Origin: a virus
IMG/VR virus record: IMGVR_UViG_2929074307_000005
Reading direction: 5' to 3' (one strand)
Length of the DNA stretch: 64,000 nucleotides
Shown: in pieces, positions 1-30,129 of the stretch
How the letters are laid out: the number at the start of each line of letters is the position of its first letter
Numbering within the stretch: position 1 is the stretch's first letter
Notes under the pieces: model-generated
Seen by the model: only the letters and a program-made list of their open reading frames with translations
What the model was told of the DNA's origin: nothing
Databases searched by the model: none
Program-made: the position numbers and the translations under genes

Positions 1-1254
1 GTGCCGATCGAAGTTTCGAATCACGACAAACGAACTTTTGTAAAAATAAGCCTCAAGACCAAGAATCATAAAGAGGCGCTTGAAAAGGCTCAGGGCGTTC
101 ATGACGCGACCGAGCGGCTTTGGGCTGCAATGTCATCAGGAAATGACAATCGCCCGGAATGGGAGCGCTACGAGGCTGCTGTGCGAACCGCACAGTCGCT
201 GGGCTTTGCGTATAAGACGGCTCCGGATTGGGCGCCATTGGTGGACCATGCCGAGTTTCATTCGCGCATGACTACAATTGAAGAGAATTATTCGACACGA
301 CCGACCGTTGTCGTTTCGGTGGCGGGTTTAGCGAAGTATCCGAATCCTCGCATCAGTGATATTTGGCAAATGTACGAAGACTTCAACCAGGCTGCTTTTG
401 TAGGGATGTCACCGAAGCAGCTTGAAAAACACAAAGTATCTCGACAGAGGGCTGTGAAATATCTCGGAGACCTTCTCAAAGATGTTCACTTGAAAGATGT
501 TTCTCGCGCTGAAGTGCTGAGCTACCGCCAATGGTGGACAGACAAGATTACAAAAGAGAGTCTTAAGGCCTACAGCGCGAACCGAAGCTTCAGCGATATC
601 AAAGGAATGCTGTCGGTAATAGATGATGCCATGCAGGCAAACTTTCGAGCTGCCTGGAGCGATATACGCATTAAAGAGACAAACGCCACAAAGCTCGAAA
701 AGCGCGTTCCGTTCTCAACATCATGGGTTCAGGATGAAATCCTGAAAGAAGGAATTCTTGATGGCATGAACGATGATGCGCGGTTCATCGTCTACACAAT
801 GGTGGAAACTGGCATGAGGCTAGGGGAGGTGTGCAATCTCCGCCCTGAAGATATCCGTGTAAACGATGAAGTGCCGCATGTTGAAGTTGCTGACCGAGCC
901 GACCGTCGTCAAAAAACAGAATATTCCATTCGGAGGATTCCACTGGTCGGAGTTGCTCTTTGGGCAATGAAGCAAGCGCAAGGCGGGTTTCCACGTTATG
1001 CGGATAATGCAGATTCAGCATCTGCGGCAATCAATAAGTATTTACGTTCCAAAAAACTATGCCCGACCACTCGGCATACTATTTATTCTCTACGACATAC
1101 GTTTCAGGATCGCATTGAGAATGCGGACTGTTCTGATCGCATGCAAGCTGACCTCATGGGGCACGAATTTGGACGTCCCACATATGGCGATGGCGCCGAG
1201 ATGAAGCGGCGCCAAGCATTTCTGGAATCCATTAAGTTCGTCTGGAAGGATTAA
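1..1254 (+). CDS. int: Tyrosine recombinase / phage integrase (N-terminus may be cut by the window edge)
   Basis: C-terminal catalytic region LRHTFQDRI...MGHEFGRPTYGDG (R..HxxR..Y); SAM-like N-terminal domain; position at the prophage edge. Confidence 0.85.
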   Translation: MPIEVSNHDKRTFVKISLKTKNHKEALEKAQGVHDATERLWAAMSSGNDNRPEWERYEAAVRTAQSLGFAYKTAPDWAPLVDHAEFHSRMTTIEENYSTRPTVVVSVAGLAKYPNPRISDIWQMYEDFNQAAFVGMSPKQLEKHKVSRQRAVKYLGDLLKDVHLKDVSRAEVLSYRQWWTDKITKESLKAYSANRSFSDIKGMLSVIDDAMQANFRAAWSDIRIKETNATKLEKRVPFSTSWVQDEILKEGILDGMNDDARFIVYTMVETGMRLGEVCNLRPEDIRVNDEVPHVEVADRADRRQKTEYSIRRIPLVGVALWAMKQAQGGFPRYADNADSASAAINKYLRSKKLCPTTRHTIYSLRHTFQDRIENADCSDRMQADLMGHEFGRPTYGDGAEMKRRQAFLESIKFVWKD

Positions 1255-4588: not shown

Positions 4589-4776
4589 CGCAGGACCTCA
4601 CCAACATAACGCACCTCATCACCAACGACGATGGCCCGACCTGTTGCCGCCAGACGGCGAGCAACGGGCAGGGGAATGCCAGTGCTTCCAAGGGATATGC
4701 GCTGCGGGCCTAGCCGCAACGCGTTGAGGAAGGCAGTGTCGATACCGTTGCCGCGGCTGTCAGTGGTACGCATCAC
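4585..4776 (-). CDS. Hypothetical small protein
   Basis: Coupled ORF. Confidence 0.4.
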   Translation of the reverse strand: MMRTTDSRGNGIDTAFLNALRLGPQRISLGSTGIPLPVARRLAATGRAIVVGDEVRYVGEVLR

Positions 4777-5006
4777 GCCGCCCTCCGCTTGAAAGGACGG
4801 CGATTGTCGTTGGCCGGGCGCACACGGCGCATACGGATCTTCTCGCCCGTTTTGCGCGATACATCATATGCAATGTCTTTGATTGTTGCGGCAGTCGTCG
4901 GGTCGCTCACGCGGTACCAACGTGCGATCGAAAGGATTGCTGCTGCTGTGGTGCCCTGAGCAATGAACTCGTCGACGGTAAGGATGTGCGTCTGTCTGTT
5001 AGACAT
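4773..5006 (-). CDS. Hypothetical protein with a C-terminal RPANDNRRPF motif
   Basis: Coupled ORF; carries the recurrent ANDN motif. Confidence 0.45.
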   Translation of the reverse strand: MSNRQTHILTVDEFIAQGTTAAAILSIARWYRVSDPTTAATIKDIAYDVSRKTGEKIRMRRVRPANDNRRPFKRRAA

Positions 5007-5058
5007 GAATAAGTGCTCCTCGTGTGGTGGTGGTGCCGGTTGCGGTCAACCGGGGTGG

Positions 5059-7158
5059 TTAGGCGGCCTGCTTGGTTGGCAGGCTGTTATTGTTAGCGGT
5101 AGGCCATGCCTCCGGTGGGATTTTCATGTTTGTATTTTCGCGAATCCATTCTAGTCCGCGCTGGATGTGAGGTCGTCCATACTTGTCGGATGGCATACCT
5201 CTGTCTCTGTAGTCCTTTACGAACCCTTGGTCTTTCTTCCGGAGACGATTGGCGAATGCTCTAGCCGTTTCATGAACGACACAGTCTGGTGGAGCTACGT
5301 TAACTCTCACCCACTCGGCGCCTTCTTTTACTTTTGGGTAGCCATCAACGTGAGGCAGGCCACGCTGTATCCAGTGATAGATACTAGTAAGATGTTTGCC
5401 ATGGATTTTCGCAAATTCGGTTTTACTAATACATCCCTTTGGGACGCGTAATTTAGAACGCAGTGGGATATATGTGCTCATCCATTTAGTCGCGTCCTCC
5501 ACTGGGACGCCTTTAATTTTATCATACGGCATGCCGGCCCGGATAGGACCTTTCAGTTTATCTGGGTGGATGCCAATTCGTCTGGCAAAGTCAGACATAA
5601 TCTCATATCCTTCTGGAGGAAGCCCCCTCACATTTATGGCTACCCAATCCAATCCGTGCTGGATTACCACCGCCCGGTGTTTATCAATGGGCAGGCCTCG
5701 CCTTATCCAATCGGTAATTGTTCCGGAAGCCACCCCCACGCGTTTAGAGAACGCATGCTGAGATTCACTTCCTTGTTCAATTACCCTGACGTTACTAGCC
5801 ACCCACTCCAAGCCTTCTTTTTTTATTGGGTATTTATTAATGTTCGGCAGGCCATTTATTAACCACCTGTGAACATTTCCTGCACCGACCGCCTCCTTTG
5901 CCATTCTATTAAACTCGGCTGGCGTCACGCACCCCTCTGGCACCACCACCCTTAATTCTCGCAATTGCCCATCAAACTCGCCTATCTCTAGACCAGTTGG
6001 AAACTCATACCCGCACTTGCAGACTTTAGCCCGCTCGGCGCGAACTTCTTTACACTCCGGGCACCGACGCAAACGCCCGTCGCCCATCGATTGCAATCTT
6101 CTCTTGCGAGCGTCGCCATCGAGAGACCACTCAATAGGCGCATCGAACCAGCCGTGATCCATCCAGAGTCCAGCATGGTCGATCACTATCGCCATGTCTT
6201 TGCCTTCTGCTTTACGCAGCACGCGACCGATCATCTGCAAAAACAGTGCAAGTGATTTCGTGGGGCGCATGAGGATGACGGCGTCAATCGCCGGCAAATC
6301 GAAGCCTTCGGTAAAGACTTCGACGTTCGACAAGACCTTAATTGCTCCTGACGCCAGCGCGTTAACAGCACTGTCGCGTTCATCTGAATTTGTCGTGCCG
6401 TCTATGTGACGAGCTGGCACGCCGCTTTCATTGAACCGATCCACCAATGCCTTGCTCATATCTACGCTTGCTGCAAAGATCAGGGCGCGCTTGCCGCTAG
6501 CCTTTTCATTGTACTCTCGCACGGCATCGCCAATCAAAACTGGCGTGTTCATAACGCCTGCCAAATCCTTTTTGGCGTAATCGCCAGCTTGCATTCGTGC
6601 GGCAGACAAATCTGGATCAGACGGCGCGAAATACCTAAACTCTGAAAGATAACCTTCGTCGATCAGTTCGCGTGTCGATGGGCCAACCGTTAGCTCGTCA
6701 AACCAATTCGACAGGCCCTTACCGTCAAGGCGCTCCGGCGTAGCGGTGAGACCAATGTGCTTTGCATCGGAAAGTTGCTCACGGATCGCCGACCAAGACT
6801 TAGCTGCAAGGTGGTGGCACTCATCCCAAAAAACGGTCGAAGGGCGAGGCAAGTCATTTATACGACGAGCTAATGTGCCATGCGAAACGATCTGGACAGG
6901 CTTGCTGTAATCTGGTTCTGCGCGAGGCGACACTACGCCAAAATCAATGCCGGCTTTAGCAAATGAAGACGCAGCTTGGCGCTCGATTTCCTGACGGTGA
7001 CAAATAAACCAGACTGGGCCTTCCTGATCTGCGATCATAGAAGTCGCTACTTTGGTTTTACCGGCACCTGTTGGCATTTGAATTACAACGCTGCTTGATC
7101 TTTCCAACGCTTTGCGCGCGCTATCAATCACGTCAGCCTGATATGGGCGAAGTGTCAT
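5059..7158 (-). CDS. SF2 (DEAD/DEAH-type) helicase with a C4 zinc ribbon and five C-terminal ~45-aa tandem HTH-like repeats
   Basis: Walker A PTGAGKT and DECHH box. Zinc ribbon CPECK...CKCGYEFP. Repeats carry the consensus xFAxxxG....WIxRGLP..K.G...E.LEWV. Confidence 0.85.
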   Translation of the reverse strand: MTLRPYQADVIDSARKALERSSSVVIQMPTGAGKTKVATSMIADQEGPVWFICHRQEIERQAASSFAKAGIDFGVVSPRAEPDYSKPVQIVSHGTLARRINDLPRPSTVFWDECHHLAAKSWSAIREQLSDAKHIGLTATPERLDGKGLSNWFDELTVGPSTRELIDEGYLSEFRYFAPSDPDLSAARMQAGDYAKKDLAGVMNTPVLIGDAVREYNEKASGKRALIFAASVDMSKALVDRFNESGVPARHIDGTTNSDERDSAVNALASGAIKVLSNVEVFTEGFDLPAIDAVILMRPTKSLALFLQMIGRVLRKAEGKDMAIVIDHAGLWMDHGWFDAPIEWSLDGDARKRRLQSMGDGRLRRCPECKEVRAERAKVCKCGYEFPTGLEIGEFDGQLRELRVVVPEGCVTPAEFNRMAKEAVGAGNVHRWLINGLPNINKYPIKKEGLEWVASNVRVIEQGSESQHAFSKRVGVASGTITDWIRRGLPIDKHRAVVIQHGLDWVAINVRGLPPEGYEIMSDFARRIGIHPDKLKGPIRAGMPYDKIKGVPVEDATKWMSTYIPLRSKLRVPKGCISKTEFAKIHGKHLTSIYHWIQRGLPHVDGYPKVKEGAEWVRVNVAPPDCVVHETARAFANRLRKKDQGFVKDYRDRGMPSDKYGRPHIQRGLEWIRENTNMKIPPEAWPTANNNSLPTKQAA

Positions 7159-7227
7159 AATCGATTCCTCGAACAGTGTTTTTGGAGGGAGGGGGCGCTA
7201 CGCCCCGTCGCTATCTTTCGTGGTAAA

Positions 7228-7455
7228 TCATGTGACGCCGAGCCCAACAGCGCCAATGGTCACAAAGAAACCAATGACAACCGTCATCTCGACAGCTTCG
7301 CGCGCTGCGTATCGTATCCAAGGCATGGGGCGAGCGTGCTTCTTTGCGCGGTAATCAGGGCGCCGCATCGGCTCGTCACTGCCTGCACGCGCAGCGTCGG
7401 TGTGCAGGTCGGGCTCCATGTCGGCGAGCATTTCCAGCAGGGCGCGGTCCATCAC
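7228..7455 (-). CDS. Hypothetical protein
   Basis: ATGA overlap with the upstream gene. Confidence 0.4.
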   Translation of the reverse strand: MMDRALLEMLADMEPDLHTDAARAGSDEPMRRPDYRAKKHARPMPWIRYAAREAVEMTVVIGFFVTIGAVGLGVT

Positions 7456-7763
7456 GCAGCCTCCGCCATGGCTTCGTCGGCAGGCTCTGCGCTGGCGGGC
7501 AGTGCGTCAAACAAGGCCTCATTGCTGGTAGCGATCGCGCCGCTTGTCTGGAAAACTTCGTATGTTTCGCCCGGGTAGAGCTTGGCGAGGCGTGTTGCCT
7601 CAGCCAGTGCTTGCTCAAACGACCCGTGTTCATACGGTAGGGTAGTGGCTACGCTGACGCGGCCGGTTTGTTTGCCGCGGCGGAATACAAAGAATCCGCC
7701 GCCGATTACTTCGTTCATGCGAGGTGCTGGCGATCTTCTTCTCGGGGTTTTTGCGTTCGTCAT
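7452..7763 (-). CDS. Hypothetical protein; first gene of the leftward early operon
   Basis: Preceded on the minus strand by ccaacctaACACGAGGAGtgacccaATG, the phage-typical initiation element. Confidence 0.5.
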   Translation of the reverse strand: MTNAKTPRRRSPAPRMNEVIGGGFFVFRRGKQTGRVSVATTLPYEHGSFEQALAEATRLAKLYPGETYEVFQTSGAIATSNEALFDALPASAEPADEAMAEAA

Positions 7764-8216: not shown

Positions 8217-8894
8217 TTAGCGGGTGTTGTACTTGCCAACGACGCGGTGACAGACTGGCCAATCCGCGCGAAATTCCTTGAATTCCTTATGCGGGTTGTA
8301 CTGTTCCAGCATCCATTCGCGGTCATTGAAGCCGACGAGTCGCTTGATGATAGCTTCGTTCTCGTCCATTGCGCTTGTGTGATAAAGAATTACATCTTCA
8401 TCGCGAACCGGCGGCAAATTCGGGTTCACGAGTGCGGTTTCACCCGGACGATAGGCAGGAACCATTGATTCCCCGGACAATAGAAGGCCGTATCCACCTT
8501 TAACGCCCTGCAGTACTGCAGGCATTTTCATATAGCTGATTGGATCAAAGGTGATGATAACGTGTCCATCGCCGCCCTTCGCTGCAGCGTAAACGGGCAG
8601 GCCGCGCTCTTGGCTTACAAGCTGGTCGCCCGGGATTGGTGCAGGTGTAAAAGTATCAGCAATCGGCTTAGCTGATGACGCGGTCATTTCGCCATTGCCG
8701 AAGGCAAGCCAATCCTCATTAAGATCCAGCGCACGAGCAAGGCGGGCTACAAATTCAACACTGGCCCCGCGCTTCCCGCTTTCCAAAAGACTGATCGACG
8801 ACTTGTCTCGCCCAATAAGAGCGGCAAGGTCAGCCTGGCTCATTTCTTTAAGGTCACGCGCCAAACGAAGGCGCTGCGCGAAATCTTTGTCCAT
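8217..8894 (-). CDS. cI: CI-like prophage repressor (HTH_XRE N-domain plus S24 LexA-like peptidase C-domain)
   Basis: HTH MSQADLAALIGRDKSSISLLESGKR. S24 motifs GESMVP (catalytic Ser) and IIKRLVG (Lys). Start taken at MDKDF (8894). Confidence 0.85.
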   Translation of the reverse strand: MDKDFAQRLRLARDLKEMSQADLAALIGRDKSSISLLESGKRGASVEFVARLARALDLNEDWLAFGNGEMTASSAKPIADTFTPAPIPGDQLVSQERGLPVYAAAKGGDGHVIITFDPISYMKMPAVLQGVKGGYGLLLSGESMVPAYRPGETALVNPNLPPVRDEDVILYHTSAMDENEAIIKRLVGFNDREWMLEQYNPHKEFKEFRADWPVCHRVVGKYNTR

Positions 8895-8937
8895 GTTGCG
8901 CTTTTCGCATATTGTTGTGAAAATGTAACGTGCGAAA

Positions 8938-8957
8938 ATGTCACCACATGTTGACAT
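8938..8957. promoter_or_regulatory. Operator palindrome ATGTCAccacatgtTGACAT; TGTCA half-sites recur at ~8968 and ~8980
   Basis: Imperfect 20-bp palindrome overlapping the -35 of the rightward promoter, in the cI-cro intergenic region. Confidence 0.45.
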
Positions 8958-8979
8958 GGATGCGAATCTGTCATATATA
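8951..8979 (+). promoter_or_regulatory. Sigma70-type promoter TTGACA-17 bp-TATATA (PR-like, rightward)
   Basis: Consensus -35 and -10 hexamers with 17-bp spacing. Confidence 0.55.
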
Positions 8980-9428
8980 GGTGTCATCAACCGGCGCAAA
9001 AGACGCTGGACAGTTCGAAGGAGGGCCTACCTCATGATGCCAGAGAACATCCACCCAAGGATATCGGCACTCAATAGATAGAAGCCGCGCTAACGCGCAA
9101 TTGAAACTGAGGAGAGAGCAAATGACCAATTCCGCCGAAAGAAGCGAACCGGCTCTCGTTGAGGCGCCGCCGTAGGATCAATAGGGACGCTGCTGACCTT
9201 AATAGGGTCAGTGGTGCTTTCGGCGTTCCTGAATGTCGAGAGATTTATAGGACGGCGTTGTGAGCCGGCACCACCCGCTGCTCCGCCGTCCTCGTAATAC
9301 CCCGGCTTACACGAGGAGGGCTTGCGCCACTTCTACACCGGGGGTTCCTTCGCGAGTACCACCCCGCGCAGGACAACAGATGGCTTCACCAAAGTCATTT
9401 GTCAACCAACACCACACACGAGGAGATC

Positions 9429-9710
9429 ATGAAAGATTATGAAACCATAGAAGAAGTGCATCGCATGCACGAGGTGGGCGCCAACCCGACAGAGATCGGA
9501 AATGCGCTTAGCTTGCCCAGATCGACGGTAGCTTCAATTCTGCGTCGTCCTATTCCAAAACCTACAGCCGACCGCATTGTCGTGCGGTGCGTTTCGAACG
9601 GTGGATGGTCCACGGCCAATCACTGCGTCAGTTATATCGCAATGCCACGCATCCGTGCGCTGGAAGCCGCGAACGACAATTACGAACAGCCGGGCGCAAT
9701 CGCAGCCTGA
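9429..9710 (+). CDS. HTH DNA-binding early regulator (Cro/CII-like position)
   Basis: HTH EVGANPTEIGNALSLPRSTVASIL; preceded by caccacACACGAGGAGatcATG; C-terminal AANDN. Confidence 0.6.
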   Translation: MKDYETIEEVHRMHEVGANPTEIGNALSLPRSTVASILRRPIPKPTADRIVVRCVSNGGWSTANHCVSYIAMPRIRALEAANDNYEQPGAIAA

Positions 9711-14311: not shown

Positions 14312-14881
14312 ATGGCATCACTAGGTAAGACCTACGTCGCAGGTGACGTAGATACCACGCAGAAAGACTTTGAAGACCTGCCTGCGGGTATCATGCAGTT
14401 CGAGATCGAAGCTACAGACGTTGTTGAAACCGGGCCCGAAGGCGCAAGAACCGGCGTCGGCCTCAAGTACACGGCGAACGTGCTCGCTCCTGAAGAAGTC
14501 TCAGGACGCAAGTTTTTTGGCTTCATCAATCTCGAGAACAAGAACCCTACGGCGCAAGAAATTGGTCAGCGCGAGTTTGCTTCGCTCCGCCGTGCCTGTG
14601 GGATTGACCAAATCGACGACACTGAAGAACTGCATTTCCGAACCTACACCGTGAAGCTTGGATTGGGTCGACCTTCCAAGGATGGGAAATATCCAGCGCG
14701 CATGGAAGTAAAGCGTTACTTCTTCCCCGATGAAGGCAACGTGCCAGAGCCGAGCATTGACGCTCAGCAGCCTGCGGCGGCAGCGCAGCGGCCTGCCAAC
14801 GACAACCGTCTTGCAGCGGCAAACAATAACAAGCCTGCGCAGCCTGCAAAAGCTGCGGGCAGCCGTCCCTGGTCTAAGTAA
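14312..14881 (+). CDS. SSB-like protein (DUF669-like), tentative
   Basis: Size, acidic/Pro/Ala-rich C-terminal tail with ANDN, and position after a Sak4-like ATPase. Confidence 0.45.
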   Translation: MASLGKTYVAGDVDTTQKDFEDLPAGIMQFEIEATDVVETGPEGARTGVGLKYTANVLAPEEVSGRKFFGFINLENKNPTAQEIGQREFASLRRACGIDQIDDTEELHFRTYTVKLGLGRPSKDGKYPARMEVKRYFFPDEGNVPEPSIDAQQPAAAAQRPANDNRLAAANNNKPAQPAKAAGSRPWSK

Positions 14882-18300: not shown

Positions 18301-20052
18301 ATGCTAACCTTACGAAACTACCAGTCAGAAGCAATAGACGCCGTATTCGACTATTGGCAAGAGGAGGCAGGCAATCCGCTTGTTGATCTTGCGACGGGCT
18401 GCGGCAAGTCGTTGGTTATGGCGTCTTTGATCCAGCGCCTCGTTGAAGGCTGGCCTGATATGCGCGTGATGGTCGTCACCCACGTCGCGGAGCTGATCGA
18501 GCAGAATTATCTGGAATTGCTTGGCGTCTGGCCGTTTGCGCCTGCAGGCATCTATTCGGCTGGTTTGGGTCGTCGTGATGCGCGCAGTCAGATCGTTTTT
18601 GCCGGCATTCAGACTGTTCATAACAAGGCGCAGAAAATCGGTCACGTCGACGTCCTTATGGTCGACGAGTGCCACCTGATTCCGATCAACAGCAACACGA
18701 TGTATCGCAAGTTCATTGATGCGCTGCTCGAGATCAACCCGGACATGAAGATCCTCGGACTGACTGCCACACCTTATCGGCTCGACAGCGGTCGCTTGGA
18801 TGAGGGCGCGGATCGTCTGTTTGATCAGATCGTCTACACCTACGGAGTTGCTGACGGTATCCGCGACGGCTTCCTTGCTCCACTGACGAGCAAGCCGACA
18901 GCAACAGAATACGACGTTAAAGGCGTCGGGCGGCTTGGCGGCGACTACAAACAGCGCGCGCTGGAAGAGGCAATCAATCGAACAGACCTCAATGATGCTG
19001 TGGTTTCTGAGATCATAGCAAAGGGCGCTGATCGTCGCTCCTGGCTTTGTTTCTGCGCCGGTGTAAAGGCTGCGCTGGACGTGCGCGACGTCTTCAGATC
19101 TCGCGGCATTACATGCGAGGCCGTCACGGGGGATACTCCTAAGGAAGAACGCCGCCGCATCCTTGAGGACTTCAAAGCATACCGCATTCAATGTGTGACG
19201 AACAATTCAGTTCTTACGACAGGTTTCAATCATAAGGGTGTTGATTTAATTGCATTTATGCGCCCGACGCTGTCTTTGAGTTTGTACGTCCAAATGGCTG
19301 GGCGTGGCACTCGTCCGCTCTACAAGGCTGGTGCGCCACTGGATACGGTTGAGGAGCGGCTTACTGCTATCTCGGCAGGCCCTAAACGTAATTGCCTCGT
19401 CCTGGATTTCGCGAAGCTTGTCGATCGGCACGGCCCTGTCGACATGGTCGAGCCTAAAGCGCCAAGCGCTGGCAATGGGGAGCCGCCAATCAAGATCTGC
19501 CCGACAGTGCCAGACGACAATGGGGCGATTGGCTGCGGTGAGAAGGTGCACATCTCGCTGATGAAATGCCCATGTTGCGGATATGACTTCCCTCCTAACG
19601 AGGACGAGAAGCTAACCCGCCAAGCCGCTGACGTTCCGATTGTCAGCACCGCCGAAGCAGAATGGCGCAAGGTAACAGGCCGGACGTTTCACTTTCACGA
19701 AGGCAAGGGCGACAAGCCGCCTTCGGTCAAGTGCAGCTACATCGCAGGATATACGCAGATCAATGAATGGCTCTGCCCACAGCATAGCGGGTTTGCGCAA
19801 ACTAAGGCGCATCGATGGTGGACGCAGCATGGAGGCCAGCGGCCGTTTCCAAAGACGGTCATGGAGTGGCTTGAGCGCCAGCGCGAGTTGCTCACCACCG
19901 ACGAAATCAGCGTCGTGCCGAACGGCAAATACTGGAATGTGAAAGACGTGCGGGCTGGAGACGTAGCAGATAACGACAACGTTCCGGAGCCTGCGAATGA
20001 CAATGTGTCTGTTGGCCTTTCGGAGCTTCTAGACGACGAAATTCCATTTTGA
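18301..20052 (+). CDS. SF2 helicase with a zinc ribbon and a C-terminal SSB-tail-like DDEIPF
   Basis: GCGKS Walker A and DECH box. Zinc ribbon CPTVPDDNGAIGCGEK...CPCCGYDFP. C-terminus ...LLDDEIPF. Confidence 0.85.
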   Translation: MLTLRNYQSEAIDAVFDYWQEEAGNPLVDLATGCGKSLVMASLIQRLVEGWPDMRVMVVTHVAELIEQNYLELLGVWPFAPAGIYSAGLGRRDARSQIVFAGIQTVHNKAQKIGHVDVLMVDECHLIPINSNTMYRKFIDALLEINPDMKILGLTATPYRLDSGRLDEGADRLFDQIVYTYGVADGIRDGFLAPLTSKPTATEYDVKGVGRLGGDYKQRALEEAINRTDLNDAVVSEIIAKGADRRSWLCFCAGVKAALDVRDVFRSRGITCEAVTGDTPKEERRRILEDFKAYRIQCVTNNSVLTTGFNHKGVDLIAFMRPTLSLSLYVQMAGRGTRPLYKAGAPLDTVEERLTAISAGPKRNCLVLDFAKLVDRHGPVDMVEPKAPSAGNGEPPIKICPTVPDDNGAIGCGEKVHISLMKCPCCGYDFPPNEDEKLTRQAADVPIVSTAEAEWRKVTGRTFHFHEGKGDKPPSVKCSYIAGYTQINEWLCPQHSGFAQTKAHRWWTQHGGQRPFPKTVMEWLERQRELLTTDEISVVPNGKYWNVKDVRAGDVADNDNVPEPANDNVSVGLSELLDDEIPF

Positions 20053-21366: not shown

Positions 21367-21939
21367 ATGCATGCACCGCTACCCAGCGGGCCTTTCGGCT
21401 GCGTCCTTGCGGACCCGCCATGGTCTTTCAGAACATACGGTAAAAAAGACGTCGCACCGGCACGAGGCCGTCAGCCTTACGGCGTGATGTCACTTGACGA
21501 TATCAAAGCACTGCCTGTCGAACAGGTATGTGCTCGCGACTGTTTGTTGTTCATGTGGACGGTTTCACATCTACAGGCTGCTGCGATCGAGGTGGCTGCC
21601 GCATGGGGCTTTAAGCCTGTTAGTGTTGCTTTTGTCTGGGACAAAGGCCGCATGGGCATGGGTTATTGGACACGGCAGGAAGTCGAAATCTGTCATCTGT
21701 TCAAGCGCGGTAAGCCTCGCCGTCTATCGAAAGGCGTGCGCTCCCTGATCAAGGCCCCGCGCCGCGAGCATTCCCGCAAGCCAGATGAGCAATACGGACG
21801 CATCGAGAGGCTGGTTGACGGTCCTTATCTCGAGCTCTTCGCTCGTCAGGCGTGGCCGGGCTGGTCTTCATGGGGCAACGAGTCTGATAAGTATGTTGCC
21901 GCAAACGATAATCAGGATTTGCTGGGGAGGGTGGCTTAA
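21367..21939 (+). CDS. N6-adenine DNA methyltransferase, MT-A70 family
   Basis: DPPW motif (CVLADPPWSF); conserved initiation element upstream. Confidence 0.8.
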   Translation: MHAPLPSGPFGCVLADPPWSFRTYGKKDVAPARGRQPYGVMSLDDIKALPVEQVCARDCLLFMWTVSHLQAAAIEVAAAWGFKPVSVAFVWDKGRMGMGYWTRQEVEICHLFKRGKPRRLSKGVRSLIKAPRREHSRKPDEQYGRIERLVDGPYLELFARQAWPGWSSWGNESDKYVAANDNQDLLGRVA

Positions 21940-22751
21940 TGGCGAAGCTCTCCAAGGCGCAGGCGAAAACACACACTCAAGCAGTTGCTATCCTTCAGCA
22001 AGAACAGTTGTCGGAAGATGATAAGGAATTCGTATATCGCAACTGGAACGAGGGCGCGAACCACGTAAACGGCGCAGCTGGTGCATTCTTCACCCCATTC
22101 GATATGGCGTTTGATTTTGCGATAGATGCTGGCGGCGGTCGCATTATTGACCTGTGTGCTGGGATTGGAATGCTCTCTTACGCCATTTGGCAGCGTAGCC
22201 GTTTCAACGACAATAGGCCGCAAATTACCTGCGTCGAGCGTAATGCCGATTATCTTGAGGTCGGGAAAAAGTTGCTGCCAGAAGCAGAATGGATTCACGC
22301 TGACGTATTTGATGTTCTCGATATGGGACTGGGGCACTTCGATACTGCGATTAGCAACCCTCCGTTCGGAAATATCAAGCGGACCAGAAACTCTCCGAGA
22401 TACAGCGGCAAGGATTTCGAATTCCATGTAATTGATATTGCGTCACATTTAGCGGACTACGGCACGTTCATCGTTCCCCAAATGTCGGCAGGCTTCAATT
22501 ATTCCGGGCGGAATAGCTATGAGCGTCAGACCAGTGGCAAAGCCGTTAAGTTTCAGGAGTTGACCGGTCTGCATTTCGATGCAGGCTGCGGCGTCGATAC
22601 TGCCTATTTCATCGATCAGTGGAAAGGCGTCTCTCCAATGTGCGAGATCGTTTGCGTTGAATTTACAGATGCGCCCGTCGTTGCCGCGAAAGCGCAACCG
22701 GCGAACGACAATGTGTCAGCTCAGCCCAGCCTCTTCGGTGACGCAGCATGA
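21939..22751 (+). CDS. N6-adenine DNA methyltransferase (NPPF class)
   Basis: SAM-binding IDLCAGIGMLS and catalytic ISNPPFG; C-terminus ...PANDNVSAQPSLFGDAA. Confidence 0.75.
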   Translation: MAKLSKAQAKTHTQAVAILQQEQLSEDDKEFVYRNWNEGANHVNGAAGAFFTPFDMAFDFAIDAGGGRIIDLCAGIGMLSYAIWQRSRFNDNRPQITCVERNADYLEVGKKLLPEAEWIHADVFDVLDMGLGHFDTAISNPPFGNIKRTRNSPRYSGKDFEFHVIDIASHLADYGTFIVPQMSAGFNYSGRNSYERQTSGKAVKFQELTGLHFDAGCGVDTAYFIDQWKGVSPMCEIVCVEFTDAPVVAAKAQPANDNVSAQPSLFGDAA

Positions 22752-23065
22752 GCCATCCAGATCAATGTCACGTCTGCTTCCGTCACGCCGTGGGACTCGG
22801 GGTGCAGGAGGGCAAGGAACCGATCCGCTGGCTATGCAAGGAGTGCGCAGACATTGCCGAGCATATCCGTTCCCGACGCAGGATGGACCCTTACGAACTG
22901 CGGGCCCTTGATACCGGCGTTGAGGCGGTTGGGGAGTTTTTGCAGTCCATACAGAAAACCGACCTCGCCGACTGCGATGAGCTTGAAGCGCGCATTCTGG
23001 TGAAAACAGCGTGGGAGGCTTGCGGGCGAGGGATGAGGGAAGCACTGAAGGAGGCGCCGTTTTGA
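22748..23065 (+). CDS. Hypothetical Cys-rich protein (CHVC...CKEC)
   Basis: ATGA overlap with the upstream gene. Confidence 0.45.
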   Translation: MSHPDQCHVCFRHAVGLGVQEGKEPIRWLCKECADIAEHIRSRRRMDPYELRALDTGVEAVGEFLQSIQKTDLADCDELEARILVKTAWEACGRGMREALKEAPF

Positions 23066-24093
23066 CCGCCTACTACAACGAATTCGATCCTAAAGCTGCC
23101 GCTTGGCTGCGCGAGCTGATCAAAGCAGGACACATAGCCCCGGGAGATGTTGATGAGCGTTCAATTGTCGATATTCGACCTGCCGACCTCGTCGGATACA
23201 CACAATGTCACTTCTTTGCCGGTATCGGCGTCTGGTCCTACGCATTGCGTCGAGCAGGATGGCACGACGACCGTCCTGTCTGGACAGGTTCATGTCCCTG
23301 CCAACCTTTCAGCGCGGCAGGCAAAGGAGATGGGTTTGCTGACGAGCGGCACCTATGGCCGCACTTCCACTGGCTTATTCAAAACTGCCGACCTGCAGTC
23401 GTCTTTGGCGAGCAAGTTGCGAGCAAGGACGGACTCGGCTGGCTCGACCTTGTACAAGCTGACCTGGAAGGATCGGGCTACGCCAGCGGGGCGGTCGATA
23501 CCTGCGCTGCGGGCTTCGGTGCGCCGCACATCAGACAGCGCCTCTATTGGGTGGCCCACGCCGACGACACGCGATCACAAGGACGGAGGGGAGTGTCAGA
23601 ACGTTCCGCTGAACGCATTGTTGGGGCGAGTGGCGTGGCTGACTGGATGGCCGACGGCGAGATGTGGGGGCAATCCGGAGGGGTACGGGAACGCCGATCG
23701 TCAGAATGGACCGAGAGGAAGGTTGGAGGACACCGTGCCACTGGCAGGTTGGCCGACAACGACAACGACGGACGCATTGCGCCACCCATCACCGAACTTC
23801 AAAACAAAGAACGTCACACTGAACCACGCAGCAGCAATGGCAGGCCCGGCCCGACTAACGGCCACTGGTCAGATGCTGACTGGCTCTTTTGCCGGGATGG
23901 AAAGTGGCGGCCAGTTGAACCCGGCACATTCCCGCTGGCTCATGGGTCTGCCGCCAGAGTGGGACGATTGCGCGGTTACGGCAATGCAATCAATGCCGAG
24001 CAAGCGCAAGCGTTCATCGAAGCGTATCGCGAAACCGAATTAGTTGCAGCCAACGACAATCACTGCAGCAATACGCTGTGGCCCTCCGCATAG
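23062..24093 (+). CDS. DNA cytosine-5 methyltransferase
   Basis: Motif I FFAGIGV, motif [11 protein letters not shown], and a QxRxR-like HIRQRLY. Start uncertain (TTG 23062). Confidence 0.7.
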
Positions 24094-24271: not shown

Positions 24272-26452
24272 ATGCATACTAACATCACGTCCGTTGTCGA
24301 AGAAGACCCAATGCTCGATGTTGCGTTGTCGTATCAGGCACAAAACTGGCCCGTTTTCCCATGCCGCCACCGCGACGAGGAGATTATCGACCCGCAAACC
24401 GGCGAAATTGAAATCCTTGCCACCAAGACCCCGCTGACCAGCAACGGGTTCCGTGGCGCGACGCTGAATGAGCGCATCGTCCGTGAATACTGGCGCCGCA
24501 ACCCTTACGCAATGATTGGCGTGCCAACAGGTGCGCCTATAGGTGCATGGGTTCTAGATATCGACCCGAAACACGGCGGCGACGAAACGCTTGCCGCGCT
24601 TGAGGCCGCACACGGCGCGCTACCTGCTACGCTAACCGCAGAAACCACGAGCGGCGGACGGCACTATTTCTTTCGTCATCGGCAGGGCGTTCGCAACCGT
24701 GGCGCGCTTGGCTCCGGCGTCGACGTGCGCGGTGACGGTGGTTATGTCATTGCGGCCGGCAGCGTGCCCGAGGTTGGCCTGCCTTACCGTTGGATATCTG
24801 AGCAAGAGCCGATCGACGCGCCAGACTGGTTGCTGGAACTGGTGCTGCCGCGCTCATATGAGAGCACATACACCGCAGCACCGTCTGTTAGCGGCAAGAT
24901 CAATGACCGCTATGTCGAGCGTGCAGTTCAATCTGAGCTGGACGATCTTGCGCTTGAACCGATGGGTAATCGCAACAACCGGCTGAACGACGCCGCGTTT
25001 CGTTTGGGCACGTTCGTTGGAGCCGGAGCTCTGGCTGAATCCGAAGCACGCGCTCTGCTACAAGACGTGGCACGAGGTTGGGGCCGGGACTGGCCGCGCT
25101 GTGTAAAGACGATCGACAACGGACTTGCTGCCGGTGCCCGCAGCCCGCGTAGTGTGCCACAGAACGACAACGATAACACGCGTCTGGTCGATATCAGCCG
25201 TATGATTGCCAATGGACTGGCGAAAGCGGAGGCGCGCACCGACGTGGTCGCAGAGCCAGTTTCGGATTTCGATTCATCTATAAACCAACAGGAACAAACT
25301 ACTGAAAATAAACGCGCAATCATTGCTACGCCATTCGTATGGAAAGACCCGGCGACGCTTCCACGGCGCGAGTTTGCATTCGGTAAGCACTTCATTCGCA
25401 AGTATGTGTCGGTGACGGTCGCGCCGGGCGGTCTCGGCAAAACTGCGAACAGCATCGTCGAAGCATTGGCCATGGCGTCGGGTAAAGCGCTCAATGGCAC
25501 GAAGCCGCCGAAGCGTCTTAAGGTCTGGTTGTTCAATGCCGAAGATCCGCGCGACGAGCTTGAGCGCCGCATTATGGCCGCTTGTATTCATTTCAATCTG
25601 AAGCCAGCAGATATCGACGGGCATCTGTTTCTAGACACAGGCCGCGAGCAGGAATTGGTCATTGCGATCGATGACAAGAAAGGCGTGCGGATTCAGGAAC
25701 CCGTCGTTGAAGCTGTTGTTGAAACGATCTCGGAGCTTGGCATTGACGTGATGATTGTTGACCCGTTCGTGTCGACGCACCAAGTCAATGAAAACGACAA
25801 CGGCGCAATCGACAAGGTGGCCAAGCTTTGGGCGCAGGTAGCGGATCGAACAAACTGCTCAATCGATATCGTGCATCATCTGCGAAAGGTGAGCGATCGT
25901 GAAGCAACTGTTGAAGACGCTCGCGGTGCGGTTTCGCTGATCGGTGCGGCACGTTCGGTGCGCGTGCTTAACCGTATGTCGGAAGCGCAAGCCAGTGAAG
26001 CTGGCCTTACACATGAAGCGCGGTTTTCATATTTCAGCGTGGTCTATGGCAAGTCGAACTTGTCAGCACTGTCGCACAAGGCTGACTGGCGCAAGCTGGA
26101 AAGTGTCGCGCTGGGGAACGGGCAGGGCCTGACCAAGCCTCAAGACCATGCGCCGGTCGTGACGTCATGGGCATGGCCGACAAGTGAGGAAGTTGCTGAG
26201 ACATTGACCGAGGACGAACGCGACGCAATCCGGGGTGTTGTGAACGGCGGCATGTATAAGCCGGCACCGCAGGCCAAGGATTGGGTAGGGCGCGCCGTTG
26301 CGTATGCACTGCAGCTGGACGTCGACGAAGAGACGGAAAAGAAGCGGGTGGGCATGATCACCAAAGCGCTGTTTGCAGAGGGCTTCCTAATGAAGGTGGA
26401 AGACCGGGACCCTGTTCAACGCAGGGCCACGACGTTTGTTCGAGCGATGTGA
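24272..26452 (+). CDS. Bifunctional primase-polymerase (PrimPol N-domain) fused to a RecA-like/AAA_25 ATPase domain
   Basis: PrimPol motifs DIDPKHGG and GYVIAAGS; P-loop APGGLGKT; phage P4-alpha-like organisation. Confidence 0.8.
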   Translation: MHTNITSVVEEDPMLDVALSYQAQNWPVFPCRHRDEEIIDPQTGEIEILATKTPLTSNGFRGATLNERIVREYWRRNPYAMIGVPTGAPIGAWVLDIDPKHGGDETLAALEAAHGALPATLTAETTSGGRHYFFRHRQGVRNRGALGSGVDVRGDGGYVIAAGSVPEVGLPYRWISEQEPIDAPDWLLELVLPRSYESTYTAAPSVSGKINDRYVERAVQSELDDLALEPMGNRNNRLNDAAFRLGTFVGAGALAESEARALLQDVARGWGRDWPRCVKTIDNGLAAGARSPRSVPQNDNDNTRLVDISRMIANGLAKAEARTDVVAEPVSDFDSSINQQEQTTENKRAIIATPFVWKDPATLPRREFAFGKHFIRKYVSVTVAPGGLGKTANSIVEALAMASGKALNGTKPPKRLKVWLFNAEDPRDELERRIMAACIHFNLKPADIDGHLFLDTGREQELVIAIDDKKGVRIQEPVVEAVVETISELGIDVMIVDPFVSTHQVNENDNGAIDKVAKLWAQVADRTNCSIDIVHHLRKVSDREATVEDARGAVSLIGAARSVRVLNRMSEAQASEAGLTHEARFSYFSVVYGKSNLSALSHKADWRKLESVALGNGQGLTKPQDHAPVVTSWAWPTSEEVAETLTEDERDAIRGVVNGGMYKPAPQAKDWVGRAVAYALQLDVDEETEKKRVGMITKALFAEGFLMKVEDRDPVQRRATTFVRAM

Positions 26453-26987: not shown

Positions 26988-27135
26988 ACGCGTAAGTCTT
27001 GTTGCGTAAGTCTCAAAAAACCTAAAAAGACTTGCGCAAAAGCACGCTGCTTTTAGTGCGTAAGAGTTCTTATATAGAAACTTACGCACAAAGCGCGCAG
27101 CGCGTAGTTCTATGCGTTTGAGAACTACGCACTTT
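26988..27135. repeat. Iteron-like array: GCGTAAG(T/A) repeats in both orientations, plus a 10-bp inverted repeat GCGTAGTTCT...AGAACTACGC
   Basis: At least five copies of GCGTAAG or its reverse complement within 150 bp; perfect inverted arms at 27102-27131. Confidence 0.5.
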
Positions 27136-28367: not shown

Positions 28368-28733
28368 ATGAGCAAAGCAGTAACAAACAAAATCATCCCT
28401 GAAGGCTTCTATTGGTCGAAGTTGTGCGGAATGGCTTTAAGAAAGAGACAGCTAGGATCACCTGTATCTGTAGAACGGCACACCATGGCCCCAAGTTCTT
28501 TGTTGAGGCGGGCGCTTGCAGAAATATCGTCTGTCGAGAACGACGCGAATGAAGCCAAAAAGCTGACATCAGAAGACGCTTCCCGTTACGGTTCTGCATT
28601 GTGGTCTGGCAAACTGAAAGAATATTTCTCGTGGAGGGCGGGGCAGGGCTTGTCGTGGTGGCATGAACAAGAGCGCCTTTATCCTTCCGCAGCCAATGAC
28701 AATTCGGCAGCAGCAGTCAGGAAGGCAGCATGA
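28368..28733 (+). CDS. Hypothetical protein (C-terminal AANDNSAAAV)
   Basis: ccaaACACGAGGAGaattttATG upstream. Confidence 0.45.
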   Translation: MSKAVTNKIIPEGFYWSKLCGMALRKRQLGSPVSVERHTMAPSSLLRRALAEISSVENDANEAKKLTSEDASRYGSALWSGKLKEYFSWRAGQGLSWWHEQERLYPSAANDNSAAAVRKAA

Positions 28734-29638
28734 GCAGGCACAAGTCCCTTGCCGGAGCCATGACTGCTTTGATGGCTTACAAAAATCGGCCTGAAAGCGA
28801 AATCATACCCGTTTCAACAAACTGGAATGTGGTGCCTGAGAATAGCAACGAACCTGAAGTGATATCGCAGATGCATACTGAGCGGCGCATTCAGATACTT
28901 CCGACCGTTGAGGAAATCATGCGGAATGTCGGCAGTGAGGACATCGAGCGCAATGATCTAGGCCAGATAGTTCGTATAGGTCGCCTCAAATTCAGCGATG
29001 GCACGCAAGTTGAGGCAGGAAATAAATATGGACCCGGTGGCGAGGTAATCGCCACCAAACACCGAATGCCAGCGGGTGCAATGCTTGGATGCCGTGAACA
29101 GGAAAGCAGAGCGCTAGGAGGAGATGAAAATCCATCCGAAGTTGCAGCAAGTAATAACTACTTTCTAGCTGCGTTCGAATTGAAGCGCCGAGAGCGTATT
29201 CCATCAGGGAAAAAGACAAAACGAACTTATCAAACGCATGACCAAGCGAAAGAAGACCTCGCAAAAGCATACGCAAACACGCCAGCGCTGCCGCCAGTAA
29301 CAAGATGCCGGCCTGGCCTACCCAATGCAGGCAACCGCATTGGAGACAGCTTTCTTGGGATGAAGAAAACGACAACTGGTGAATCGGGATCAATGGGGTG
29401 GCAAGACGTTTCTAGTGCCCTGGTAGATCGCGAGATATGGGCCCAAGCCATTGAGGCGCTATCGGAGAGGGATAGAACGGCAATGGATACGGCGGCACAT
29501 GGGAAGGTGAGGAACTACGAAGGGTTAGGGATATCTTTGGGCTTCAAGACAGAATATTCGAGACGCAAGGGCGGACGGAAGGCCTTAACGGCGGCCAATG
29601 ATAATCTTCAAGAAAACATAAAAAGATTTTCTGCCTAG
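28730..29638 (+). CDS. Hypothetical protein (C-terminal AANDNLQENI)
   Basis: ATGA overlap with the upstream gene. Confidence 0.5.
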   Translation: MSRHKSLAGAMTALMAYKNRPESEIIPVSTNWNVVPENSNEPEVISQMHTERRIQILPTVEEIMRNVGSEDIERNDLGQIVRIGRLKFSDGTQVEAGNKYGPGGEVIATKHRMPAGAMLGCREQESRALGGDENPSEVAASNNYFLAAFELKRRERIPSGKKTKRTYQTHDQAKEDLAKAYANTPALPPVTRCRPGLPNAGNRIGDSFLGMKKTTTGESGSMGWQDVSSALVDREIWAQAIEALSERDRTAMDTAAHGKVRNYEGLGISLGFKTEYSRRKGGRKALTAANDNLQENIKRFSA

Positions 29639-29970: not shown

Positions 29971-30046
29971 GCCCTTGTAGCTCAGTTGGGAGAGCGGCTG
30001 CCTTGTAAGCAGATGGTCCGGGGTTCTATTCCTCGCGAGGGCACCA
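29971..30046 (+). tRNA. tRNA-Thr (anticodon UGU), 76 nt with encoded CCA
   Basis: Cloverleaf folded by hand: acceptor GCCCTTG/CGAGGGC, D-arm GCTC..GAGC, anticodon loop cTTGTaa, T-arm CGGGG/CCTCG; one G-A mismatch in the anticodon stem. Confidence 0.65.
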
Positions 30047-30053
30047 ATTCAAT

Positions 30054-30129
30054 GCGGAGTGGAGAAGTGGTCATCTCGTCTGGTTCATACCCAGAAGACC
30101 GTCGGTTCGAATCCGACCTACCGCAACCA
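30054..30129 (+). tRNA. tRNA-Met-like (anticodon CAU) with an imperfect acceptor stem; possible degenerate phage tRNA
   Basis: Perfect T-arm GTCGG-TTCGAAT-CCGAC and anticodon arm TCTGG-ttCATac-CCAGA. Initiator-like 3' end CCGCAACCA. Acceptor stem has two mismatches. Confidence 0.45.

Follow-up and report, generated by a model that had tools for sequence, protein, structure and literature searches.

In E. coli RadD (YejH; 6jde, 7r7j and 8h5y), two SF2 RecA-like lobes that bear DECH and TATP motifs precede a cysteine zinc motif, and the protein has little classical helicase activity. Free Xis, Cox, BldC and RdfS obtain specificity and DNA bending through oligomers on DNA. An excisionase, or recombination directionality factor, is a small wHTH protein whose gene adjoins that of the integrase and which excision requires. 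A classical MerR regulator combines an N-terminal wHTH with a coiled-coil dimerization helix and an effector-binding domain, and binds palindromes as a dimer. The alpha protein of phage P4 is a self-loading initiator helicase with a C-terminal winged-helix origin binder. BldC forms a head-to-tail oligomer on direct repeats, and Xis a cooperative micronucleoprotein filament (PMC5859096). According to a study on RdfS, an excision factor of the wHTH type that is itself oligomeric, oligomers on DNA are common among wHTH proteins (PMC11963761). SaPI Rep is a helicase with a C-terminal winged-helix origin binder (PMC9371898). Our keyword search of the literature returned no paper on a fusion of a RadD-like motor with tandem wHTH units; a keyword match on run-off replication in Bartonella concerns a Twinkle-like helicase, which is unrelated to the protein described here.

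The DNA that we analyzed is a stretch of 64,000 nucleotides (the window) from an IMG/VR virus record. Its helicase 1 gene (5059–7158, minus strand) encodes 699 aa: a RadD-like SF2 ATPase, then a zinc ribbon, then five wHTH repeats and last a conserved tail. Ochrobactrum sp. BH3 has a protein that is 100% identical to helicase 1. The two RecA-like lobes (6154–7158, minus; residues 1–335) belong to SF2 by a motif scan, with motif I GAGKT31, motif II DECH112, motif III TATP138 and motif VI QMIGR308. Pfam ResIII (7.7e-23) and Helicase_C (3.5e-18) match helicase 1 above the Pfam cutoffs, and phrog_16 matches it at 7.6e-101. The closest PDB entry to the motor is RadD both by sequence (6jde, E 1.8e-26) and by fold (8h5y, E 4.7e-23). 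On the RadD equivalog model NF053632 of NCBIfam, helicase 1 reaches 129 bits where the cutoff is 720, its alignment covering model positions 1–360 of 573 and ending at residue 334. The second gene, helicase 2 (18301–20052, plus strand; 583 aa), encodes a RadD-like paralogue without wHTH repeats and lies in a module with Sak4, DUF669, clamp and Cas4-exonuclease genes. It has GCGKS33, DECH122, TATP and QMxGR motifs, matches ResIII, Helicase_C and phrog_16 as well, and scores 250 bits on the same RadD model (cutoff 720). Judged from their sequences, both proteins are RadD-like and not RadD orthologues. The C-terminal DDEIPF of helicase 2 (20032–20049, plus) resembles the C-terminal tip of SSB; this end reads [DE]D[DE][IV]PF in phages RHph_X2_25 and 16-3, and IPF in RHph_X2_26.

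The sequence-only reading had described two SF2 helicases with DECH boxes on opposite strands that share a C4 zinc ribbon. Both open reading frames and their motifs are indeed present, and an alignment of the two proteins that spans about 440 aa shows 26% identity (E 2e-29). Cysteines follow the second RecA lobe in both, as in RadD-like proteins, forming a putative metal site. The ribbon of helicase 1 (5995–6069, minus; residues 364–388) has the spacing C366-x2-C369-x10-C380-x-C382-GYEFP, in which C366, C369 and C382 are invariant among 44 homologues. That of helicase 2 (19498–19596, plus) reads C400-x11-C412-x10-C423-x-C425-C426-GYDFP, ending in CPCCGYDFP. The second half of the signature, CxCGY(E/D)FP-like, is thus common to both, but helicase 2 has no CxxC first knuckle. 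Pfam UPF0547/Zn_ribbon_3 matches the helicase 1 ribbon only weakly, and the zinc-ribbon scores of both helicases are 17–18 bits, under the cutoff of 29. In the full-length AF2 model of helicase 1 (pLDDT 86; core above 90), the ribbon has low pLDDT and is modelled without metal.

What sets helicase 1 apart is the array that follows the ribbon. A repeat HMM finds five domains (i-E 1e-13 to 1e-18), all encoded on the minus strand: repeat 1 at 5788–5949 (residues 404–457; modelled helices 413–424, 429–434 and 446–456), repeat 2 at 5626–5787 (residues 458–511), repeat 3 at 5458–5625 (residues 512–567; the most divergent), repeat 4 at 5296–5457 (residues 568–621; nearest to repeat 1) and repeat 5 at 5128–5295 (residues 622–677). 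The number of tandem repeats noticed earlier therefore stands, and a BLOSUM dot-plot places their offsets at 53–55 and 164–166 aa; the period is 53–56 aa, not the roughly 45 aa first given. Repeats said to be visible in the nucleotides can barely be seen: one 66-nt pair at 73% identity (5297–5362 and 5789–5854, in repeats 4 and 1) exists alongside short matches, and TRF found no nucleotide tandem repeat over 5000–7200. The HTH-like character proposed for the units agrees with structure prediction. The model of a single unit, for which repeat 4 was used (AF2, pLDDT 82), predicts a strand, an HTH, a beta-hairpin and a helix, and each of the five units reaches a pLDDT of about 84–95 in the full-length model. 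The predicted units of about 50 aa thus have the HTH, beta-hairpin wing and third helix of the MerR/Xis/Nu1-type fold. With a pTM of 0.59, the full-length model fixes nothing firm on array geometry.

The best fold matches of the repeat unit are mostly DNA-binding proteins, several solved on DNA, and include Xis, RdfS and TorI. Repeat 4 matches PHROG families of Cox-like excisionases (2.5e-6), small terminases and MerR-like proteins, and the nearest stand-alone relatives among 1.84 billion proteins searched are the phrog_57 small terminases. Pfam HTH_17, MerR and MerR_1 gave no match on helicase 1 at E<=0.1; precomputed HTH_17/MerR-type matches on its homologues are faint or weak. A classical MerR regulator was rejected as a description, since each repeat in the full-length model stops after helix 3 and none of the units leads into a long coiled-coil helix. 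When only the last 301 aa served as query, the word prefilter let through one match, and homologues had to be sought with the full-length protein.

Proteins with this helicase-array architecture form a family that occurs in prophages, chiefly those of Alphaproteobacteria, and that has 1–8 repeats per protein. Across this family the median identity is 63% in the motor core and 29% in the array; in P0004 the core is 90% identical and the array 35%. The units shuffle and diverge very quickly between phages, and our scan of IMG/VR turned up nothing closely related to the array of the window. As far as sequence comparison goes, the array is a separate, fast-evolving module. Across the family, conservation within the array is highest in the wing and third helix of repeat 5 (HIQRGLEW[IV]R[ED]NT). 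Close orthologues retain recognition helices specific to each repeat, that of repeat 2, SGTITDWI, being unchanged in the two nearest. With a net charge of +16 and a pI of 9.8, the array is strongly basic, and the family median pI is likewise 9.8. Its fast, separate evolution is what one would expect of a specificity determinant. On the strength of this and of its charge, it is reasonable that the array addresses DNA, and tethering to DNA is a plausible function.

Other readings of the same features have to be weighed. The repeats may instead be protein-interaction or RNA-binding modules, the substrate of helicase 1 then being something other than DNA, and the recognition helix is in keeping with this in that it has no conserved residue, only the structural F, G, P and W being nearly invariant. 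We consider this very unlikely in view of the strong positive charge of the array across the whole family and of the DNA binders among its fold matches. Relaxed constraint or an arms race, in place of DNA specificity, could also account for the fast divergence. Another reading is a function in conflict, either anti-defence or superinfection exclusion, in which the array recognizes foreign or host DNA or mimics the DNA-binding domains of small terminases while the motor disrupts nucleoprotein complexes of a competitor or of the host. The shuffling of the array, the mosaic presence and absence of the gene among relatives that share gene content, the kinship of the units to small-terminase wHTH domains and the early-operon position typical of accessory genes all favor such a function. 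It nevertheless appears quite unlikely to us: PADLOC returned generic SF2 similarity only, with no specific match or defence-system assignment, and among 20 loci no partner gene recurs in more than 6, with nucleases and effectors absent from any conserved partnership.

The sequence-only reading had also named a target for the array, namely the iteron-like repeats of the window, at which it would load the helicase on an origin. This array (26990–27135) consists of about 7 near-identical 10-mers like GCGTAAGTCT in both orientations; no other cluster of at least four 10-mers, and no other strong cluster of repeats, occurs in the window. Some 20 kb separate it from helicase 1, and it sits directly 3' of the gene for a primase-polymerase (24272–26452, plus; 726 aa, with a helicase-like C-terminal part; phrog_906, 2.3e-120). 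RHph_X2_25, 16-3 and dozens of IMG/VR prophages have syntenic arrays downstream of the primase-polymerase, and the motif of these arrays follows the lineage of that enzyme. More than 20 IMG/VR contigs encode a primase-polymerase at 92–98% identity, most with a GCGTAAGTCT cluster; at about 79% identity, 9 of 22 have a GCGCACTTCT cluster and most others have none within the 2.5 kb examined; at lower identity the iteron motifs differ. RHph_X2_25 and 16-3, whose primase-polymerases are 73% identical, have GCGTGACA iterons in common. Since the syntenic arrays co-vary with the primase-polymerase lineage, we assign the iterons to this enzyme, which from these comparisons is likely their cognate protein.

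That helicase 1 recognizes these iterons and is loaded there as an origin-specific initiator is, in our estimate, highly improbable. SaPI Rep offers a precedent for the arrangement, and RHph_X2_25 has both a repeat-bearing helicase and iterons where RHph_X2_26 has neither. Yet phage 16-3, with 12 iterons of the RHph_X2_25 type, has no wHTH-array helicase (the top six-frame match is at E 0.039), and the many IMG/VR contigs with a near-identical primase-polymerase and the window's iteron motif come from a collection without a close relative of the array. Identical short sites in both orientations also mismatch five divergent head-to-tail units. The numbers of wHTH copies and iterons (5 and about 7 in the window, 4 and 14 in RHph_X2_25) are uninformative. 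Of the earlier proposal, then, the array as a DNA-binding address remains reasonable for a basic, fast-evolving module, whereas origin loading at the iterons is not supported. Because the iterons track the primase-polymerase and 16-3 does without an array helicase, helicase 1 is better regarded as an accessory early gene than as an origin loader. The reassignment also points to a candidate origin of replication in rhizobiophages like 16-3 and in prophages of Brucella and Ochrobactrum.

The genomic setting raises a further possibility. A CI/LexA-type repressor gene (8217–8999, minus; HTH_3 and Peptidase_S24) lies upstream on the same strand; among the open reading frames of 60 aa or more that follow this gene, helicase 1 is the third, after 7452–7763 and 7228–7455; the integrase gene (1–1254, plus) is outside this operon. 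In the six annotated loci that we read, the family gene and the gene for an S24-type repressor are 2–9 genes apart, whichever of the two operons holds the former, and in the E. coli phage HeidiAbel the first gene that diverges from CI encodes a homologue without repeats. Together with the Cox-like excisionase/repressor matches and the fold matches to Xis, RdfS and TorI, this position would suit a covalent Cox/Xis-like filament at promoters or att sites near the immunity region, where the motor would evict the repressor or remodel the complex and so control the switch or excision. We nonetheless think such a regulatory role unlikely. Phage 16-3, a relative whose operon layout from repressor to integrase is the same and which has genes for Xis, the primase-polymerase, helicase 2, Sak4 and the clamp in common, runs the same switch without a helicase 1 gene. 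We rejected the idea that the array takes the place of Xis, because RHph_X2_25 still encodes, next to int, its own 16-3-type Xis (79% identity). A search for repeats that could serve as the DNA target found none that was convincing near the helicase 1 gene, in the pL/pR regions or in integrase-proximal DNA, the last two of which also showed no direct-repeat sites, and blastn of the window against the locus of its closest relative gave coding similarity only, with no conserved non-coding DNA.

The protein ends in a tail (5062–5127, minus), IPPEAWPTANNNSLPTKQAA, in which IPPEAWP is followed by an ssrA-tag-like ANNN...AA end; the last residues are TANNNSLPTKQAA. An IPxxAW motif is present in 80 of 120 family members, a final AA in 67 and the pattern AN[DN]N.{5,12}AA$ in 30. 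The pLDDT is below 50 over residues 689–699, and the mean falls from 74 to 44 between the last two 10-residue blocks. A ClpXP degron of the ssrA kind would be a C-terminal AANDN...(L)AA peptide some 13–14 aa long. The Caulobacter ssrA tag is AANDNFAEEFAVAA (PMC9393093), and by this likeness the tail probably shortens the lifetime of helicase 1 via ClpXP. Ends of 13–15 aa like the alphaproteobacterial ssrA degradation tag occur in at least 10 proteins of the prophage, helicase 1 included.

Based on these findings, we tentatively propose that helicase 1 is an accessory, early-gene RadD-like translocase of an Ochrobactrum prophage whose wHTH array tethers the motor to DNA, a reading that we hold to be possible, if somewhat short of probable. 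The host phage would be temperate and 16-3-like, with a helicase 1 that carries five covalent Nu1/Xis-type units instead of the usual short C-terminal module. By analogy with Xis, Cox, BldC and RdfS, the array may lie head to tail on some 50–100 bp of duplex, and it would anchor the motor either at an extended, asymmetric, phage-specific site or on DNA with low specificity. The anchored motor could then remodel or branch-migrate DNA in the manner of RadD, aiding early recombination or replication restart; its output is uncertain because RadD itself has so little classical helicase activity. If the array is non-specific, it would simply help a RadD-type enzyme of weak processivity to bind DNA more tightly. 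If it reads sequence, it would be a compact recognition scaffold of about 55 aa per module and would account for the way in which an accessory translocase of a phage is directed to its place. A stronger form of the latter idea, which we regard as doubtful, is that the array is a modular DNA address in which each unit reads its own short segment, the number, order and identity of units setting where the translocase parks. Were it true, the array would be a covalent heterotypic Xis/BldC filament and a new class of multi-module reader on a motor.

Compared with described systems, helicase 1 has the lobes, motifs and zinc site of RadD, but five wHTH units stand where RadD has its C-terminal domain, and its gene is phage-borne and accessory. 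Its core and ribbon are 37–45% identical to the phrog_16 phage helicases (about 460–475 aa; for example, HeidiAbel_Bas97 gp41), which likewise come from temperate phages and are encoded near the repressor; these end, by contrast, in a short C-terminal module, L..LG..RGYK.P..WA, that does not match the repeat HMM. SaPI Rep and P4 alpha resemble it in general terms, as a motor with a winged-helix DNA address, but they are SF3 hexamers with one WH domain and with iterons directly 3' of their own gene, a description that in the window fits the primase-polymerase and not helicase 1. A lambda-type small terminase (gpNu1-like; 7lxs, 6hn7_B; phrog_57) has one N-terminal wHTH per chain followed by an oligomerization domain, whereas helicase 1 carries five tandem copies at the C-terminus of a motor. 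Xis, Cox, RdfS and BldC have the same fold as the array units, and the tandem array would be the covalent counterpart of their multimers; their units are identical, non-covalent and stand-alone, while those of helicase 1 are divergent, linked and fused to an ATPase. The array would in effect hard-wire an oligomer of the Xis/Cox/BldC/RdfS kind into one chain and couple it to an ATP-driven motor.

The window contains a temperate prophage with an organization like that of the Rhizobium phages 16-3 and RHph_X2_25, and a sequence search found an Ochrobactrum sp. BH3 protein 100% identical to helicase 1. Besides a CI/LexA-type repressor gene (8217-8999, minus strand), it has a leftward, minus-strand operon that includes the helicase 1 gene (5059-7158) and a rightward operon encoding Sak4-like, HNH, DUF669, clamp, Cas4-exonuclease, helicase 2, exonuclease and three methyltransferase proteins and a 726-aa primase-polymerase (24272-26452); terminase and structural genes follow this early operon. 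Genes for tRNA-Thr(TGT) (29971-30046) and tRNA-Met(CAT) (30053-30129) lie within the prophage, at the junction of the early and packaging modules. A tyrosine integrase ORF (DUF6538 and Phage_integrase; 1-1254, plus strand) begins at the window edge and faces the leftward operon, whereas in 16-3 and RHph_X2_25 int is the end of that operon.

Our results favor assigning the iteron array to the primase-polymerase. When the whole window was scanned on both strands with one mismatch allowed, 26990-27135 was the sole site with at least 4 copies of one 10-mer within 200 bp; it comprises about 7 GCGTAAGTCT-like copies, present in both orientations, and the primase-polymerase gene lies about 540 bp upstream of it. 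At the syntenic position RHph_X2_25 carries 14 GCGTGACA sites. Phage 16-3 has a primase-polymerase with 73% identity to the RHph_X2_25 protein, and 12 copies of this motif directly after its gene. More than 40 loci of related phages and prophages carry a syntenic array, with a motif that depends on primase-polymerase lineage (GCGTAAGTCT, GCGCACTTCT, GCGTGACA, CTTCCACCGC, AGCCAGACAT, TTGTCCCGCT and others). Across 80 IMG/VR loci, the motif tracks the primase-polymerase lineage: at 92-98% identity most loci have a GCGTAAGTCT cluster; at about 79%, 9 of 22 have a GCGCACTTCT cluster and most others have none within the 2.5 kb read; more distant primase-polymerases have other motifs. The sequence-only reading had instead offered the iterons as a candidate target of the winged-HTH (wHTH) repeats of helicase 1. 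RHph_X2_26, which lacks both a repeat-bearing helicase and iterons, is the only observation favoring this link. Phage 16-3, by contrast, has its 12 iterons and no repeat-bearing helicase (top six-frame match E 0.039), and no close relative of the window's wHTH array was found in IMG/VR, against more than 20 contigs with a 92-98% identical primase-polymerase, most of them bearing the GCGTAAGTCT array; recognition of the iterons by helicase 1 is thus very improbable. In SaPI Rep origins, too, the iterons come directly after the initiator gene and flank an AT-rich center (PMC9371898). Taken together, the synteny, the lineage-linked motif, the state of 16-3 and this SaPI-like layout argue that the iterons most probably belong to the primase-polymerase, and the array is best read as its origin.

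Both helicase ORFs are present as originally reported (helicase 1, 699 aa; helicase 2, 18301-20052, plus strand, 583 aa), each with the DECH box and also motifs I, III and VI, and both match ResIII, Helicase_C and phrog_16. They are indeed paralogous, albeit distantly (26% identity, E 2e-29). The zinc ribbon said to be common to them is shared in its second knuckle but differs in its first: C366-x2-C369-x10-C380-x-C382-GYEFP in helicase 1, C400-x11-C412-x10-C423-x-C425-C426-GYDFP in helicase 2. Judged by sequence and fold, the helicase 1 motor is RadD-like: its top solved relative is RadD (sequence, 6jde, E 1.8e-26; fold, 8h5y, E 4.7e-23), with XPB next. Both proteins fall far below the RadD equivalog cutoff of 720 bits (129 bits for helicase 1, 250 for helicase 2). 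Helicase 2 ends in LLDDEIPF (20032-20049), and homologues (L087, 4511-6244; L250, 47008-48738; L088, 36499-38247) finish EDDVPF, DDEVPF and PTIPF. This pattern, [DE]D[DE][IV]PF, resembles the acidic SSB C-terminal tip (DDDIPF), which recruits SSB-interacting proteins. Since E. coli RadD binds that tip, helicase 2, the paralogue of helicase 1, appears to carry an SSB-tip-like ligand in its own chain.

The five tandem repeats of helicase 1 were confirmed, their period being 53-56 aa rather than about 45, and next to nothing is repeated at the nucleotide level, where repeats had been described. Repeat 1 is most like 4, and 2 like 5. The proposed HTH-like character was borne out by fold prediction: a unit modeled from 91 family repeats (pLDDT 82) has a winged HTH topology of strand, helix-turn-helix, beta-hairpin and helix. 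The full-length model (pLDDT 86, pTM 0.59) gives a confident fold for each of the five units, with low confidence for the last 11 residues and for the zinc ribbon, which was modeled without metal. A repeat profile run against 1.84 billion representatives retrieved 1891 proteins at E<=0.001, the nearest stand-alone relatives being phrog_57 small terminases. The array is basic (+16, pI 9.8; family median pI 9.8), and only structural F, G, P and W are near-invariant over all repeats.

Nearly all of the best 120 homologues have 3-6 repeats (four in RHph_X2_25), and one representative, P0122, has 8; sources include Ochrobactrum, Agrobacterium, Bosea, Rhizobium, Shinella, Mesorhizobium, Ahrensia, Methylobacterium and phage RHph_X2_25. 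The array diverges far faster than the core (median identity 29% versus 63%; in one homologue, 35% versus 90%), and repeat-by-repeat orthology persists only in the two closest relatives, which keep repeat-specific recognition helices such as SGTITDWI of repeat 2. The wider helicase family (about 460-475 aa) shares this core and zinc ribbon but has a short, different C-terminal module. Any given neighbor gene was kept in at most 6 of 20 loci. An S24-type repressor gene is found 2-9 genes away from the helicase gene in the loci read, where the helicase gene belongs to either the leftward or the rightward operon. In Escherichia phage HeidiAbel_Bas97 (L082, 5283-7410), a repeat-less homologue from the wider family is the first gene divergent from a CI-like repressor, 170 bp away, the usual place of a cro/cox-type gene. 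P0123 (461 aa), with seven wHTH repeats, an IPASAW tail, its own start methionine and no helicase domain, appears from its sequence to be a stand-alone array without motor or a split gene. Large metagenomic proteins (P0130, P0149, P0154, P0172, P0146) carry 8-16 tandem HTH units of MerR_1, HTH_17 or HTH_3 type, fused in P0154 (1092 aa) to another, SF2/SNF2-like helicase; long tandem-HTH arrays thus recur and are largely uncharacterized. RadD-like motors and Nu1/Xis-type wHTH units are each of known kinds. A keyword literature search returned no paper describing a fusion of such a motor to a variable tandem array, and databases label the repeat-bearing proteins only DEAD/DEAH helicase or RadD.

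Helicase 1 has a conserved tail, IPPEAWP-x-ANNN...AA. In at least 10 window ORFs AN[DN]N occurs no more than 30 aa before the stop, mostly as 13-15-aa AANDN...A(A) tails, usually (A)ANDN, 7-9 residues and A(A)-stop (for example AANDNSAAAVRKAA, AANDNYEQPGAIAA and PANDNRRPFKRRAA): 9399-9710, 14312-14881, 18301-20052, 21367-21939, 21939-22751, 23011-24093, 28368-28733 and 28730-29638 on the plus strand, and helicase 1 and 4773-5006 on the minus strand. The six frames hold 12 AN[DN]N in total, 10 of them within 30 aa of the stop of a long ORF, mostly an annotated gene. Phage 16-3 (L250/L251) has 7 such ORFs and RHph_X2_25 (L001/L087) at least 5; none was found in RHph_X2_26. In mycobacteriophages, ssrA-like tags are known from repressors and integrases; the term 'ssrA-like' is reportedly used in one study of cluster P mycobacteriophages. 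The window tails resemble the alphaproteobacterial ssrA/tmRNA tag (AANDNFAEEFAVAA in Caulobacter; PMC9393093), and may be SspB/ClpXP degrons that the phage genome itself encodes on many of its proteins.

For helicase 1, a role in origin loading had been suggested. The repressor-to-integrase operon layout recurs in phage 16-3, which also has Xis, primase-polymerase, helicase 2, Sak4 and clamp genes in common with this prophage, yet lives without helicase 1; on this genome comparison the gene is accessory, and we reject a replication initiator role. Helicase 1 is also unlikely to be the excisionase itself because RHph_X2_25 retains a separate Xis. It may have a regulatory or a conflict-related role, and its repeats may bind protein. 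The most economical reading is a RadD-like motor tethered to DNA, whose binding, target and motor output we infer as follows. The motor would process branched or protein-bound DNA in the early lytic program, while array binding would raise DNA affinity and possibly supply a phage-specific extended address. Xis and BldC form oligomers on DNA (PMC5859096), and the RdfS report describes a wHTH protein that forms oligomers (PMC11963761); by analogy, the array would bind head to tail along duplex DNA and be a covalent counterpart of Xis, Cox, BldC and RdfS oligomers.
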